Shown in pieces: positions 27,265 through 46,600 of a DNA stretch of 64,000 bases. The position numbers and the translations under genes were made by a program. The notes under the pieces were generated by a model. The model was not told the DNA's origin. It was given only the letters and a program-made list of their open reading frames with translations, and ran no database searches. Position 1 is the stretch's first letter, and the number at the start of each line of letters is the position of its first letter. The DNA is from Candidatus Enterousia sp. (GTDB lineage: Bacteria > Pseudomonadota > Alphaproteobacteria > Rs-D84). The stretch lies in contig JAZRLB010000007.1 in the NCBI GenBank assembly GCA_045646625.1, positions 3,369 through 67,368 on the forward strand. The letters run 5' to 3'.

Positions 27265-27566
27265 ATAAATTAAATATAATAATTTATCTAAAAACCAATC
27301 GGGAATCTTATGTAGCGATTGTACACTACGATTCCCGATTGTCTTTTATCTAAATCATTCTATTTAATTTATCAAATCTAAAACCGTTTACGGGAATCTT
27401 ATGTGGCGATTGTACACTGCGCCATTTCCAACCCGTTTATCTATACCATTATCTTTTATTTTATTAAAATTTGATACATATCTAAATCGGGTTGGCAATG
27501 GCTTATGTAGCGATTGTACACTACAATTCCCGATTGTCTTTTATCTAAATTATTCTATTTAATTTT
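27265..27566. repeat. Composite of three ERIC/RPE-like palindromic units
   Basis: Cores CTTATGT(A/G)GCGATTGTACACT at 27307, 27398, 27502. Confidence 0.9.
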
Positions 27567-27601
27567 AGCAAATCGAGTTTTTTTATGATATAATCTATTT
27601 T

Positions 27602-28282
27602 ATGAAGCGTTCAATCTGGTTTTGGGTCTGTTTTGTTCTGTCCGTTGTTTTTGCGGTCTATTTCGCGTCGCGTGTTATTATGGTTGGAATGGGGTATGGC
27701 AATATGGCGCGTGTGCGTAATATTTCTGTTTCGGCGGATAAAAAAGATAAAGATTTATCAGCAATTGCAGTGGCGGCTTCGGTTGCGCCGGGAACGCGTG
27801 CTTATTCTGTGGATTTGAATCAGATGAATGCAAAAATTGCAGCTGTGCCGGGGGTCAAAGACAGTGCAGTGCGCAGATTGTCAAATGGTAATCTTGTGGT
27901 GCGGGTGACGCTGCATACGGCGGTGGCGCTGTGGACGGATGGCGAACATTATTTTCCTTTGTCGGCCGATGGTACAATTGTAAATAAGCCAACTGATGTG
28001 CGTGATGATACACATGTTGTTTTTCGTGGCGTGGTGCCAAATGATATTGCAGAAATTACCAAGGCGGCACATAACTTTGTCGGTCGATTGGATTATCTGG
28101 AATGGATAGAAGGAAGACGTTGGAATTTGTATACGATGAATGGGATTGTTGTAATGTTGCCAGAACGTGACCCACTGGGGGCGATTGCTTCGTTGGTGAC
28201 ATTGAATAATAATCACAAAATCTTGGACCGTGATATCAGTGTTCTTGATATGCGGGACGAAGCACGAATTTTAGTTAAATAA
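27602..28282 (+). CDS. ftsQ: Cell division protein FtsQ/DivIB
   Basis: N-terminal TM, POTRA (V..VRR....L.V.V), RRWNL, LDMR. Confidence 0.85.
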   Translation: MKRSIWFWVCFVLSVVFAVYFASRVIMVGMGYGNMARVRNISVSADKKDKDLSAIAVAASVAPGTRAYSVDLNQMNAKIAAVPGVKDSAVRRLSNGNLVVRVTLHTAVALWTDGEHYFPLSADGTIVNKPTDVRDDTHVVFRGVVPNDIAEITKAAHNFVGRLDYLEWIEGRRWNLYTMNGIVVMLPERDPLGAIASLVTLNNNHKILDRDISVLDMRDEARILVK

Positions 28283-28285
28283 GAT

Positions 28286-30064
28286 ATGAATTTATTTGAT
28301 TCTGCTTTTCTGTGTTTGGATATTGGCACATATGGTGTGCGCGGTATTGCGCATCGTGTGCGCAGCGCACGTATTGATCAGTCTGCATACTTTGCAGTTG
28401 ATAGTTCTGATACTGTGTTCGCAATAAAAAAAGTTGTAGATGAACTGGAAAAACAGCTGTCTGTGCGTTTTGGTTCGGCATATGTGACGGGGAATTTTGG
28501 GGAATCAAAATATGAAATGTCGGCTAAAAGTACGGTTTGGAACGGTGAACATAAAATCACAGCCGCTGATGTGCGAAATCAAATTACCCAGATTGTGCCG
28601 CCTGATGGTTTCTTTCCTATGCATATTGTGCCGTTGAGATATTATTCGAACCAGGCACGTGATATGAAGACACCTGTTGGTCATGTGGACAGACAATTAG
28701 TGTCCGTGTTTGGAAATATATTTTATTCGCGTGCTGGTGTTGATGCGGTTTTTGAAAAACTGCGTGGGGCGCATATTCAGGCAGATGCAATGTTTGATCC
28801 GCAATTTATTCAAAGTGAAATGTGTCGTGCGGAAAATCAGACAACTATGTTTATAGATTTTGGTGCCGAATATACGTCGGCTTCAATCTGGACCAATCGT
28901 GGACCAGTATGGCATACCAAAATTAATATGGGGGGGGCACATATTACAAATGCAATATGTGAAAAACTGAAAATCAATACGGATGATGCCGACAGAATCA
29001 AGCGCGTGGTGGCGTCATTAATACCAAAAGAAATGGATAGGTTTGCGCCCGCGGATAGGGAATATGATTTTACGCGTGGTGATGTAAACGATATTGTGTT
29101 GCCTGTGTTGATTGATATTATTGGGCAATTGAAAAATCAATGTGCGGCATCGTTTGCAAAGCACAGGCCAAGTAAAATTATTCTGATGGGGGGTGGGGCA
29201 GAAACAGAAGGTTTGCGTGATTTTATAGAAAATGCCTTTGCAATAGTGACAGAAGTGTTGCCGATTGATGCGACGGTGCGGGCATTGGCGGATTGGATTT
29301 GGCAATCAGAAGAAGCGCACAGAAAAAGTTATGTTGCACGTCGCGAACGCTGGGGGCAACGTACAAAATGGATGTCCAAGTTGTTCAGAAAAAAGGCAAA
29401 AAAGGTTAAAAAATTTATCCCAATATTGCCCAGCAGTCTGTGTTTTGATATGCGACGACCTGATACATATACGTTGTTTAAGTCGGGTGGAATATCAATG
29501 ATTCATGTTGATATTATGGATGGTTTTTATGTGGATAGGGTGTCAGGTAGTATAGATGAATTAAAGACAATTCGTGCGCGGACAAATGCGTTTTTGCATG
29601 TGCATTTGATGACGGAAAGTCCTGTTGTTTGGGCTGATGATGCGATTGCGGCGGGTGCAGATACAGTGATTTTATCAACGAATACTTCGGGGTTAAAGAC
29701 GGCGATACATAATGTTCGTGCAGCAGGACGTCGTGTTGGTGTGGCGTTGAATCCGAATTCATCGGTGACCTTGTTGACACCGATTTTGCGCGAGATAGAT
29801 GAGGTTATGGTTATGGCGGTTGCGCCAGGGGCAGCGGGGCAACCGTTTGATCCAGATGTGTTGCGCAAGATTTCTATTTTGGCCGGGACGCGAAAAAAAT
29901 ATGGATTAAAGTTTATTATTTCTGTTGATGGTGGAATTAATGAAACGACGGCGCGCTTATGTTGGGACGCGGGGGCCGATTGGCTGGTGTCTGGGTCGTA
30001 TCTGGCGTGTGCACCAGATTTTCCGTTGGCGGTGCAAAGTTTGATGAAAAAGAATGCTGAATAA
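28286..30064 (+). CDS. ftsA: Fusion of FtsA-like actin ATPase and ribulose-phosphate 3-epimerase
   Basis: LDIGT, IDFGAEYT, MGG.HIT, LMGGGA; then HVDIMDG, HLM, ALNP, SVDGGIN, VSGS (Rpe). Confidence 0.85.
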   Translation: MNLFDSAFLCLDIGTYGVRGIAHRVRSARIDQSAYFAVDSSDTVFAIKKVVDELEKQLSVRFGSAYVTGNFGESKYEMSAKSTVWNGEHKITAADVRNQITQIVPPDGFFPMHIVPLRYYSNQARDMKTPVGHVDRQLVSVFGNIFYSRAGVDAVFEKLRGAHIQADAMFDPQFIQSEMCRAENQTTMFIDFGAEYTSASIWTNRGPVWHTKINMGGAHITNAICEKLKINTDDADRIKRVVASLIPKEMDRFAPADREYDFTRGDVNDIVLPVLIDIIGQLKNQCAASFAKHRPSKIILMGGGAETEGLRDFIENAFAIVTEVLPIDATVRALADWIWQSEEAHRKSYVARRERWGQRTKWMSKLFRKKAKKVKKFIPILPSSLCFDMRRPDTYTLFKSGGISMIHVDIMDGFYVDRVSGSIDELKTIRARTNAFLHVHLMTESPVVWADDAIAAGADTVILSTNTSGLKTAIHNVRAAGRRVGVALNPNSSVTLLTPILREIDEVMVMAVAPGAAGQPFDPDVLRKISILAGTRKKYGLKFIISVDGGINETTARLCWDAGADWLVSGSYLACAPDFPLAVQSLMKKNAE

Positions 30065-30108
30065 ATCAGGCCCCGTTTTGGGGCCGTTGATTTTTTATTG
30101 TTGGATAT

Positions 30109-30678
30109 TTATACCATAAACGGCAGGTTTTCCAATGTTCCTTCGGCAACACGGACGTTTACGTCAATCATCATAAAGACAGAATCTGGTGTGCGCAGGG
30201 CGTGGTCTGCAAATATGTTAGAGTCCAGAAGATGGCTGGTATTGACGGACAATTTTGTAATCAAATGATCGTCGTCAAGAAGTGTGTAAATAGGACCAAT
30301 GTCACGTGGTGTGTTTGCGCCAATTTCGTGTTCGTTTTGTGGACAACGCAGTCCGTCCATAATAGTCTTTACGCGGTTGTCGATATCAGAACGCGGAACA
30401 CCAACGATTTCAGGGTGCAGCATTTGGATGTCCAGTTCTGCAATTAATTTCAGGTTTGGGGTGATAATTGGATTCCAATCAATGCCGCCAACGTGACGTG
30501 TGGTGATGGGGCTTTTGGTTGGGTTTGGTACCATATATTTTGTTAGGTTGTTCCAAGGGCTGTGTTCAACCAGTTTCTTTAACTGGGGGTGAAATTGCAT
30601 ACGGATGTCCGCAATGTGTTGGGCGCGTTTTTTTGGGTTAATTAAAATGTCGCCAAAATAAAGTAGTTTGAATTTCAT
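30109..30678 (-). CDS. Hypothetical protein with RusA-like acidic motifs
   Basis: DIDNRVKTIMDGL and LLDDDHLI resemble the RusA D-x-D-N-x-x-K...DD motifs. Confidence 0.6.
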   Translation of the reverse strand: MKFKLLYFGDILINPKKRAQHIADIRMQFHPQLKKLVEHSPWNNLTKYMVPNPTKSPITTRHVGGIDWNPIITPNLKLIAELDIQMLHPEIVGVPRSDIDNRVKTIMDGLRCPQNEHEIGANTPRDIGPIYTLLDDDHLITKLSVNTSHLLDSNIFADHALRTPDSVFMMIDVNVRVAEGTLENLPFMV

Positions 30679-44323: not shown

Positions 44324-46600
44324 ATGGCAGGAAAGAATTCAAGTAAGTTTTTACCAGACAGTATATCTGGGATGTTGAAAAAATTGTTGGCGCGCTTGTT
44401 TGGGGCGCTGGTGCTGATTTGTGGGGTATGGGCCGTGTGGGCTATGCTGTTCTATAATCCTTATTTGTCGGGGTTTGGTGTGGCGGGTAGTTATGGAACG
44501 CAGTCCGTTATGGGGTATATAGTTGGTTTCGTGCGATATGCGATTGGGGCGCTGCCGGGGTTGTTTGTATTTATGTGTGTTGTGCGCTGGGGCTTTATGC
44601 GGATGATTGCGCTGGTGGGCGAGGGGATGCCCGAATATAACCTTTTGCGTGGTTTTATTGCGACGTGTGTTGGGGCTGCGGCCTTTGGGTTGATTGTGCC
44701 TTCGGCTACATTTGGTGGGATGTTTGGCGCAATTGTTGCAAGTGATCTGGGGGCGATGGTTGGGCGTGGGATGTCTGTTGCGATTGGTTTGGGATGTTTG
44801 CTGGTGTTTTTCTGGATGGCGGGTGCATTGTTGCATATAAAGTGGTCGCATGTGCGTGGGGCGCTGCAAATTGCGTGGCGTACAGTTCGTGCGGTTGGGG
44901 TGGCATTCCATTTGACGGGGGCGCGCGCTGCTGTGGCAGATACGACAGAAACGCCAATCAAAGATGAAGAGCCTGTTGTGGCCAAGGAAGAACCTAAGAA
45001 GCAGCGACGTGGATTGTTAACACGGCGTGCGCCCAAAAAGGCGGTGTCGATGGCGCCTGTTGCGGTGGCTGCGACGCCAACGCGTGTGCGGGCTGAGTCT
45101 CAATATCAATTGCCAGATCCGAAATTATTAGAACGTTCTAATTTTAGCAAGTGTTCAGTGACGCCTGAGTTGAAACAAAATGCGCGGAATATGGAAACAC
45201 ACTTTGCGGAATATGGTGTGTACGGCAAAGTTGTGGGGATTAAACCGGGGCCAATTGTGACACTGTATGAATTTGAGCCCGATACAGGTATGCGAATTGC
45301 AGATATTACAAAGACTGTCAAAGATATGACGCGCGCAATGGCAACTGAAAATATTCGTATTGCCCATATCCCCAGCACCAGTTATATCGGTGTCGAAATG
45401 GTTAATGTCACACGACAGATGGTTCGGTATCGTGGCCTGATGGAGGCAGATACATTTGTCGATACGAAATACAAAATTCCTTTGGCGTTGGGGGTGAATA
45501 TCGGTGGAAATCCAATGTATTTCGATTTGGCAAAGATGCCGCATATGCTGATTGCAGGACGCACAGGTTCAGGTAAATCTGTGTTCGTGCAGTCTATTAT
45601 TACGTCGATTGTTTATCACTTTACGCCGGATAAGTGCAAGTTGATGATTATTGACCCAAAAGGTGTGGACTTTGGTTTCTGGGATGATATCCCGCATCTG
45701 ATTACGCCAATTGTAAAATTAGATCCCGCGGCGGCTGTAAACGCACTGAAATGGGCAGTGCGCGAGATGGAAGAACGGTATAAGCAACTGCAGGTGTTAA
45801 ATGCGCGTAATATTGAAAGTTATAATGAAATCGCGGCTGAAAAACGCGCGGCCGGCGAAAAAATGACCAAGCAAGTGGCGGTTGGTACAGACCCTGAAAC
45901 GGGTGAGTTGTTGTTCGAAACCCAAGAAATCGATTTGTCTGATATTCCATATATCGTTATCATTATTGACGAGGTGGCTGATTTGATGAGTTTGGCGCGT
46001 AAAGAAGTGGAAGCCTGTGTTCAGCGTATCGCACAAAAGGCACGCGCAGCGGGGATTCATTTAGTTATGGCAACGCAAAGACCAGACGCAACAACCATTA
46101 CAGGTGTTATCAAAGCGAATTTTCCAACACGTGTTTCCTTCCAGGCGCGTAGCCGTATTGACAGTGTGACCTGTCTGGGTGAAGGTGGGGCGGAACAATT
46201 GTTGGCCTGTGGTGATATGCTGTTCAGCGAGGCGGGACGTGTGCCTGTGCGAATACACGGTGCGTTTATACACGATGATGAATTAACACGTGTTGGTGAT
46301 TTCTTGCGTTCTCAGGGGACGCCTGAATATGTCGAGGGTGTGACAGATGCCGAAGGTGATGGGGCAGGGGGTGATATGGCCGGATTGCCGGGTGCGATAC
46401 CAGGGGGGGGCGCTGATAAAGAAGGCGACCTGTATGAACGTGCCAAAGAATGTGTCATTCGTGATAAAAAGCCTACGATTTCATATATTCAACGCCGTTT
46501 GGGAATTGGGTATAACAAAGCGGCTGGATTTATGGAACGTATGGAACAGGACGGAATTGTGTCCGCGCCAGATGCGAATAATAAAAGGCATATATTGTAA
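44324..46600 (+). CDS. ftsK: DNA translocase FtsK
   Basis: N-terminal TMs, PHMLIAG.TGSGKS, IDE.ADLM, ATQRP, gamma domain QRRL.IGYN.AA. Confidence 0.97.
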   Translation: MAGKNSSKFLPDSISGMLKKLLARLFGALVLICGVWAVWAMLFYNPYLSGFGVAGSYGTQSVMGYIVGFVRYAIGALPGLFVFMCVVRWGFMRMIALVGEGMPEYNLLRGFIATCVGAAAFGLIVPSATFGGMFGAIVASDLGAMVGRGMSVAIGLGCLLVFFWMAGALLHIKWSHVRGALQIAWRTVRAVGVAFHLTGARAAVADTTETPIKDEEPVVAKEEPKKQRRGLLTRRAPKKAVSMAPVAVAATPTRVRAESQYQLPDPKLLERSNFSKCSVTPELKQNARNMETHFAEYGVYGKVVGIKPGPIVTLYEFEPDTGMRIADITKTVKDMTRAMATENIRIAHIPSTSYIGVEMVNVTRQMVRYRGLMEADTFVDTKYKIPLALGVNIGGNPMYFDLAKMPHMLIAGRTGSGKSVFVQSIITSIVYHFTPDKCKLMIIDPKGVDFGFWDDIPHLITPIVKLDPAAAVNALKWAVREMEERYKQLQVLNARNIESYNEIAAEKRAAGEKMTKQVAVGTDPETGELLFETQEIDLSDIPYIVIIIDEVADLMSLARKEVEACVQRIAQKARAAGIHLVMATQRPDATTITGVIKANFPTRVSFQARSRIDSVTCLGEGGAEQLLACGDMLFSEAGRVPVRIHGAFIHDDELTRVGDFLRSQGTPEYVEGVTDAEGDGAGGDMAGLPGAIPGGGADKEGDLYERAKECVIRDKKPTISYIQRRLGIGYNKAAGFMERMEQDGIVSAPDANNKRHIL

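Follow-up and report, generated by a model that had tools for sequence, protein, structure and literature searches.

We analysed 64,000 nucleotides of Candidatus Enterousia sp. (GenBank assembly GCA_045646625.1, contig JAZRLB010000007.1, positions 3,369 to 67,368; hereafter, the window) and find that the gene following ftsQ encodes, in one open reading frame (ORF) of 592 aa, a divergent FtsA joined to a ribulose-phosphate 3-epimerase (Rpe). This ftsA::rpe fusion is confined to one GTDB family within its order, where it is a fixed gene under purifying selection and no artefact. FtsZ is the division protein of nearly all bacteria; judging from genome searches, the family that carries the fusion appears to have lost it. 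We are very confident of the core description, namely one ORF with both folds and intact catalytic residues, the sole Rpe of the genome, an FtsA module assigned by orthology and synteny, an origin from overlapping genes, purifying selection and no FtsZ. Both modules come from known families, and the FtsA-Rpe architecture is undescribed in the searchable literature: a search for a fusion of FtsA with ribulose-phosphate 3-epimerase found no paper, in agreement with a first-pass annotation of the letters, which knew of none.

That annotation had read the frame after ftsQ as FtsA followed by Rpe, and the ORF list, Pfam and NCBIfam all agree (coordinates in Table 1). Pfam FtsA (PF14450) matches residues 189-319 (E 5.5e-10, 40.1 bits against a cut-off of 31.8), and Ribul_P_3_epim (PF00834) matches residues 396-573 (E 3.7e-39, 134.6 bits against 21.1). 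The C-terminal part also passes the NCBIfam rpe model NF004076 (169.2 bits, cut-off 165); on the Rpe equivalog model TIGR01163 the fusion scores 142.1 bits, below the cut-off of 212.6. The nucleotide motifs LDIGT, IDFGAEYT and GGG can be read in the FtsA module. At E ≤ 0.01 the window fusion has no match to Pfam SHS2_FTSA, a domain that the FtsAs of sister families do match.

Using an alignment of 31 family sequences, we modelled the fusion with AlphaFold2 (mean predicted local distance difference test score, pLDDT, 91.8; predicted template modelling score, pTM, 0.61). Two confident domains are predicted, with a helix at residues 343-367, pLDDT below 50 at 368-373 and the first Rpe strand at 380-383. 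Searching PDB by Foldseek, the N-terminal domain finds FtsA structures on top (1e4g, E 4e-24; 7q6f, template modelling (TM) score to target 0.72), and its TM scores to target are 0.67-0.72 for FtsA compared with 0.52-0.57 for PilM. The C-terminal domain finds Rpe structures with TM scores of 0.85-0.93, of which 2fli gives a TM to target of 0.93 and a root-mean-square deviation of 1.6.

The Rpe module is complete, as the first reading from about position 29410 had it; its first strand starts at about residue 379 (nucleotide 29420), and the motifs HVD, HLM and VDGG lie at residues 407-409, 440-442 and 547-550. In an alignment with 2FLI (35% identity), the counterparts of H407, D409 and H440 are H34, D36 and H67; together with the Asp of VDGG, we take these residues to be the metal and catalytic site. 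These ligands are intact in 42 of the 45 family sequences in our motif table. Checking for a separate rpe copy, as had been advised, we found that the fusion is the sole Rpe-family match in the window genome, which has both transketolase and RpiB. Because of this sole-copy status and the presence of these two partners, the Rpe module is most likely the housekeeping epimerase of the cell, and the same evidence together with the intact residues suggests that it is active. In some genomes of the same genus, a second stand-alone Rpe-family ORF occurs (225 aa, about 30% identical to the Rpe module of the fusion; G113:C4:61524-62081, G119:C3:77921-78439, G173:C1:30740-31264 and G042:C2:30093-30617); the window genome has none.

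The junction DNA, read directly, contains neither a stop nor a Met, as the first-pass annotation had noted, and ATG, GTG and TTG codons are all absent; the Val codon there is GTT. No start codon is conserved before the Rpe part across 43 family genes: the codon preceding the Pro-Ser motif is ATG in 15, TTG in 7, TTA in 4, CTG in 4 and something else in 13. A separate Rpe product from an internal start is thus unlikely on sequence grounds. If the first or the second of the A6 runs gained one A, an in-frame TAA would result, giving a stand-alone product of FtsA size. The start of the fusion lies 4 nucleotides (nt) past the ftsQ stop, and in 38 of 42 family loci the FtsQ homologue ends within -34 to +3 nt of the fusion start. 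The best explanation of this arrangement is one two-module protein, probably cotranscribed with ftsQ.

Three A6 runs at the junction could suggest a frameshift or a missed stop produced by sequencing or assembly in the A-rich stretch, and the contigs of one sequencing run (X1) do end at 29413/29421, within the area of the A6 runs. We consider this explanation refuted. Contigs of three other runs (X2, X3 and X5) span 29380-29430 without a gap, and no indel was reported at any position of the gene. Leaving out the window genome itself, 129 of 130 family genomes have a full-length fusion, spread over all 18 genera (18/18) and at 30-100% identity, as do all 113 high-quality family genomes. The family genomes that lack it in full length are one that is 72% complete and has no match and one whose copy is interrupted by a contig break. 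In a protein search, all 120 listed matches, from many independent assemblies, are 584-598 aa long and contain both Pfam domains, at identities of 68-91%; their NCBI name is 'ribulose-phosphate 3-epimerase [Alphaproteobacteria bacterium]'. No stop or frameshift was found at the junction in any family genome. Flags of an 'internal TAA' in 13 family genomes were rejected, since the fetched sequences show each gene's own terminal stop. The first-pass annotation had pointed to separate genes in relatives, and to a stop or frameshift in reads at the junction, as the signs that would speak against a fusion. Distant relatives do have separate genes, but no family genome has such a stop or frameshift and the contigs of the other runs have no indel, and the balance favours the fusion.

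Selection was estimated from the 3 gene pairs, out of 903, whose synonymous divergence was unsaturated. For the whole gene, the ratio of nonsynonymous to synonymous substitution rates (dN/dS) was 0.04-0.14; by part, it was 0.035-0.16 in the FtsA module, 0.11-0.33 in the linker and 0.05-0.09 in the Rpe module. The amino-acid sequence of the linker is thus under purifying selection too, which again does not fit an artefact. Among the best 150 of 10,672 matches in a search of representative proteins, we found no independent FtsA-Rpe fusion elsewhere. The matches that extend over both modules come from 19 representatives of 542-623 aa, every one of the family type; all the others are fragments or Rpe proteins that stand alone.

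The earlier remark that no ftsZ lies downstream was correct and understated. The window genome (956 kb, 97.4% complete, no N stretches) has no FtsZ match anywhere: neither TIGR00065 nor PF00091 gives a candidate, there is no Tubulin_2 match, tblastn of 10 sister-family FtsZ proteins reaches a best E of 0.17, and an unfiltered hidden Markov model built from these 10 proteins reaches 0.22. In a first draw of genomes, FtsZ was found in 0 of 91 from the family and in 26 of 29 from sister families (24 above the cut-off). In a second draw that covered all 18 sampled genera, it was found in 0 of 131 family genomes and 0 of 113 high-quality ones, single-contig genomes included. A literature search gave no paper that pairs FtsZ with Rs-D84 or Enterousia, and the main text of a paper on the reduced-genome order Rs-D84 (PMC12306168) mentions neither FtsZ nor FtsA.

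Other parts of the division and wall machinery are retained. The window genome has MreB, two SEDS proteins and four transpeptidases, and FtsK and, unexpectedly, ZapA were each found in 41 of 41 family genomes (the ZapA gene of the window genome, G000:C17:30196-30456, is outside the window). MreB is kept throughout the family census except in G088, which has DnaK-level matches only. The best FtsE-like ABC ATPase matches in the family score 250-264 bits, just below the cut-off of 264.85, which 14 sister-family genomes pass; the match in the window genome is at G000:C19:17658-18293. Both the fusion and the loss of FtsZ can be placed on the stem of the family. Since there is one event of each, their co-occurrence proves nothing causal. 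Elsewhere in the order, genome G027 (family f4, 93% complete) has an FtsZ-like match of only 31 bits in a 422-aa frame, FtsA matches at MreB or DnaK level only, and no fusion match. Here the Z-ring may have been given up a second time, by different means.

The sister families suggest how the fusion arose. Sixteen sister-family genomes gave matches, and 11 of them encode the FtsA part (frames of 398-443 aa) and the Rpe part (199-259 aa) in separate frames; the fetched loci of families f2, f5 and f6 have the gene order ftsQ-ftsA-rpe. Both Pfam FtsA and Pfam SHS2_FTSA match these stand-alone FtsAs, whose C-termini are amphipathic tails of the typical kind. In three sister genomes (G032, G029 and G028), the ftsA stop overlaps the rpe start as TAATG, and an AAGGAG formed by Lys-Glu codons of the tail lies 8-9 nt upstream; in a fourth (G025), a 17-nt spacer carries GGAGG. 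Because of these overlapping or close stop/start pairs with their AAGGAG or GGAGG, ftsA and rpe are predicted to have been translationally coupled already before the fusion. As rpe lies in another frame, we infer that a small indel would remove the stop and at the same time join the frames. The fusion would then have arisen once, at the base of this family of about 0.9-Mb gut Alphaproteobacteria, by a small indel between the coupled genes, and would have been retained under purifying selection since. An origin by streamlining, one of the two possibilities first put forward, is supported by the sister arrangement, and the Rosetta-stone pattern is present: fused in one family, separate linked genes in relatives.

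In sister family f3, an ABC-transporter gene stands between ftsA and rpe. This intervening gene is 589-601 aa long (L051, L052, L053 and L056; the scanned copy, L051, has ABC_membrane and ABC_tran), and the printed C-termini are basic, of the …NRALFRRIFRK… type. We considered that ftsZ once stood between ftsA and rpe and was then deleted, and rejected it: ftsZ of the sister families is elsewhere, and the intervening gene in f3 is the ABC transporter.

The FtsA module of the family aligns end to end with the sister stand-alone FtsAs, apart from short deletions in its subdomains 1A and 2B. The amphipathic segment WGQRTKWMSKLFRKK (residues 356-370), which had been noticed where FtsA normally ends, does occupy that position: the linker stretch ...TKWMSKLFRKK... 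aligns with the C-terminal tails of the sister FtsAs. The net charge of the linker is +12 in the window and ranges from +1 to +14 over all 43 family genes, being at least +8 in 33 of them. This basic amphipathic linker probably corresponds to the membrane-targeting tail of FtsA, now internal, and would still be expected to bind the membrane.

One sub-lineage of the family is informative about what the protein does. Genome G100 (98% complete; GC content of the gene 20%) carries a fusion copy (L042; also L079, G100:C1) that is 30% identical to the window's. In its Rpe module, H407 is replaced by Tyr, D409 by Thr and D548 by Cys, and the PGxxGQ and SGS loops are lost. In its FtsA module, SIGE, NLEN and G--S replace DIGT, DFGA and GGG. 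Two protein clusters of 589-590 aa share the degenerate changes (P0121 at 97% identity and P0122 at 76%), so that the lineage as a whole has H407Y, D409T/S and D548C. G100 has no second Rpe match and no transketolase match, the latter being found in two congeners and two other family genomes; ftsQ is kept directly upstream, and the genome retains both SEDS proteins.

Despite these losses, the whole protein is maintained. L042 and P0122 are 73% identical in the FtsA-like part, 64% in the linker and 82% in the Rpe-like part, and an equally diverged intact pair shows 76%, 52% and 83%, respectively. A neutrally evolving gene would be expected to gather about 9.7 nonsense changes over its whole length (P(0) = 6e-5). 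This is a strong hint that the protein of the degenerate lineage is kept for a role needing neither epimerase chemistry nor a canonical nucleotide site, and that the Rpe-like barrel is part of that role. Further DNA of the degenerate type was sought: the contig scan gave G100 only, and two metagenome scans gave none. Genus g15 (L043, L044, L045 and L059) varies in another way, having Tyr for the phosphate-1 Asp of FtsA and Asn or His in phosphate-2, with Rpe intact; its sole genome in the MreB census is G088 (96% complete), the one with the DnaK-level match only.

Putting these observations together, the explanation that we consider moderately probable is a two-module protein of single origin that serves FtsZ-independent septation and whose Rpe module multimerises FtsA. 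The FtsA module with its basic amphipathic linker would lie on the inner face of the membrane and would act with FtsQ, FtsK and an FtsW/FtsI-type synthase. The Rpe module would be the only ribulose-phosphate 3-epimerase of the cell, feeding transketolase and RpiB, and most lineages would have it in active form. Oligomerisation is obligate for Rpe enzymes, and the oligomeric barrel may in addition multimerise the FtsA modules. Single PDB entries of Rpe hold 6 to 12 chains (2fli, 1tqj and 7b1w), which is consistent with an oligomer. Such a structural role would explain why the Rpe module was retained where catalysis decayed; taken by itself, we rate it as somewhat short of an even chance. Membrane binding, the division role, Rpe activity and the oligomerising role are all inferred. 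A bolder version, to which we give a slim chance, makes the chimera a cytokinetic scaffold: Rpe barrels would cross-link membrane-bound FtsA polymers that recruit FtsQ, FtsK and FtsW/FtsI and replace the Z-ring, with ZapA maybe as an accessory. If true, a metabolic enzyme fold would have been co-opted as a cytoskeletal structural module and kept beyond the loss of catalysis.

Several observations weigh against septation by an oligomerised FtsA, beginning with the identity of the N-terminal module. The first-pass annotation had called this FtsA divergent, and indeed it scores 60.2 bits on TIGR01174, far from the equivalog cut-off of 175.85. In a phmmer search of PDB, PilM (2ych, 2.8e-7) ranks above FtsA (7q6g, 0.006). 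We rejected a PilM identity, as the fold ranking and synteny favour FtsA despite that first rank; because PilM outranks FtsA by sequence alone, the FtsA call rests on the predicted fold and on synteny. Moreover, the Asp residues of the FtsA nucleotide motifs are replaced in 7 to 8 of the 45 sequences of the motif table, so the module may work unlike canonical FtsA. These same points, the weak FtsA score, the short deletions in 1A and 2B and the replaced Asp residues, would suit an FtsA module that has left division and is only a membrane anchor or an expression vehicle for Rpe, in line with the NCBI name 'ribulose-phosphate 3-epimerase'. We find this quite unlikely. The full FtsA fold is kept at the low dN/dS given above, the tight coupling to ftsQ holds in 38/42 loci, and the FtsA module is conserved (73% between members) where Rpe catalysis is lost, so it cannot exist only to serve Rpe activity.

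A second group of adverse points concerns the link between the modules. The pTM of 0.61 and the low-confidence linker are compatible with two freely tethered modules, and a fused gene whose downstream module has no start cannot easily split again. Persistence of the fusion is therefore no proof of functional coupling. Docking of the two modules by complex prediction scored 0.00, which counts neither way. These facts suit our main rival, a neutral ratchet: an indel joined overlapping genes, each module kept doing its former job independently, the fusion persists only because the Rpe start was lost, and FtsZ disappeared by chance on the same long branch. The sister genes, overlapping or closely spaced, the lack of a conserved internal start codon, the flexible linker and the single branch that holds one event of each kind all fit it. 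We give it a real but minority chance, unlikely on the whole, since the Rpe-like module stays full-length even where its key residues are dead and transketolase is missing, and is there as conserved as in the intact pair (82% versus 83%), and since the linker is itself under purifying selection. This counter-evidence has its own limits, which likewise tell against our explanation. The degenerate type is a single lineage of three sequences; for the Rpe-like part alone, the neutral expectation is 2.3 nonsense changes (P(0) = 0.1), which is weak evidence; and the model of the degenerate variant, in which both domains fold (pLDDT 87.7), was made from an alignment that holds intact homologues. A last adverse point is ZapA, the canonical FtsZ-binding protein. 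Its retention without FtsZ is unexplained and could mean an undetected FtsZ substitute.

The first-pass annotation had also offered pentose-phosphate metabolism tethered to the divisome, by analogy with UgtP and OpgH. These two metabolic enzymes, from B. subtilis and E. coli respectively, are stand-alone proteins that respond to UDP-glucose by inhibiting the assembly of FtsZ. The tethering itself is plausible, but the analogy as stated fails, because UgtP and OpgH act on FtsZ and the family has none. A sensor of this kind, in which substrate binding by the Rpe module tunes FtsA and pentose-phosphate flux times division, would fit an intact enzyme physically linked to a division protein and the short distance from the membrane-tail segment to the first Rpe strand. 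The absence of the FtsZ target and the retention of the protein in a lineage without substrate-binding and catalytic residues make it very improbable.

The remaining features of the locus are listed with the fusion in Table 1. Promoter-like sites are not much enriched in the region (10 observed, 8.1 expected from shuffles), so the site upstream of ftsQ is weak evidence. This site and the strong terminator-like hairpin, both consensus matches, would delimit the operon. Convergent with the terminator of the fusion is a 189-aa ORF (window 30109-30678, minus strand), for which Pfam gives no family at E ≤ 0.01. Some 15 kb further downstream, a 762-aa frame on the strand of the fusion holds an FtsK_SpoIIIE-domain match (205 bits) at about 45452-46084 (G000:C7:48820-49452).

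Table 1. Features of the ftsQ-ftsA::rpe locus, in positions of the window.
Feature	Position	Strand	Description
Promoter-like site upstream of ftsQ	27565..27594	+	Consensus match: TTAGCA, 18-nt spacer, TATAAT; 10/12, TG before -10
ftsQ, first gene of a two-gene operon	27602..28282	+	226 aa; FtsQ_DivIB_C E 2e-9; POTRA_1 E 7e-4, below its cut-off
ftsA::rpe fusion ORF	28286..30064	+	592 aa plus stop, ATG start; from ORF list, Pfam, NCBIfam and AlphaFold2 model
FtsA module	28286..29311	+	Residues 1 to about 342; predicted actin-type fold with 1C-type insertion
Linker	29312..29419	+	Residues 343-378; predicted long helix ending basic amphipathic, then short disordered Lys-rich stretch
A6 runs (n = 3) coding the Lys-rich stretch	29389..29413	+	Read from the sequence; no function claimed
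Rpe module	29420..30061	+	Residues 379-592; predicted complete (beta/alpha)8 barrel; H407, D409, H440, D548
Terminator-like hairpin and T-run just after the fusion stop	30069..30095	+	Stem GGCCCCG/TGGGGCC, 7 pairs (6 GC), then GTTGATTTTT

In summary, a widespread alphaproteobacterial family of animal guts has apparently dropped FtsZ alone and kept FtsA, FtsQ, FtsK, ZapA, MreB and both pairs of SEDS protein and penicillin-binding protein, FtsA existing there only as a fusion to a pentose-phosphate enzyme. The family offers a natural system for the role of FtsA without FtsZ and for the division of walled cells without a Z-ring, and the sub-lineage whose two modules both have dead catalytic sites provides a separation-of-function mutant that is already to hand. 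As the database name is 'ribulose-phosphate 3-epimerase' alone, these genomes will be recorded as FtsA-less in automated surveys.

Compared with canonical FtsA (TIGR01174; 1e4g, 4a2a, 3wqt, 7q6d and 7q6f), the N-terminal module has the same predicted fold with a 1C-type insertion (SHS2, in place of 1B), the same position directly after ftsQ, nucleotide motifs in the window copy and a basic amphipathic segment at the tail position. Unlike canonical FtsA, it reaches 60 bits against a 176-bit cut-off and has the short deletions in 1A and 2B; its tail is internal and runs into another domain, and the usual partner FtsZ, whose C-terminal peptide canonical FtsA binds through subdomain 2B, is found in neither the genome nor the family. 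The C-terminal module resembles stand-alone Rpe (PF00834; 2FLI, 1TQJ and 1RPX) in its complete barrel, its conserved metal and catalytic positions and its status as sole copy beside transketolase and RpiB. It differs in having no start of its own, in occurring only as the C-terminal module of FtsA, in scoring below the TIGR01163 cut-off and in being a catalytically degenerate pseudo-enzyme in one sub-lineage. UgtP and OpgH share with the fusion the physical association of a carbohydrate-metabolism enzyme with the division apparatus, whereas here the enzyme is covalently linked, and to FtsA, in a family without FtsZ.

The closest parallel for the missing FtsZ is given by Chlamydia and Wolbachia supergroup J, which are FtsZ-less, keep MreB, RodA/PBP2-type proteins and other divisome genes, and have reduced genomes (PMC10591338). 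The organisms studied here are metagenome-assembled genomes from the gut, not known as intracellular. Table 2 of the review on those two lineages (PMC10591338) gives ftsA as 0% in both, unlike the present family, which keeps FtsA (as the fusion), FtsQ, FtsK and even ZapA. Because the FtsZ-less lineages tabulated there also lack ftsA, the retention of FtsA and ZapA without FtsZ is, by this comparison, unusual.

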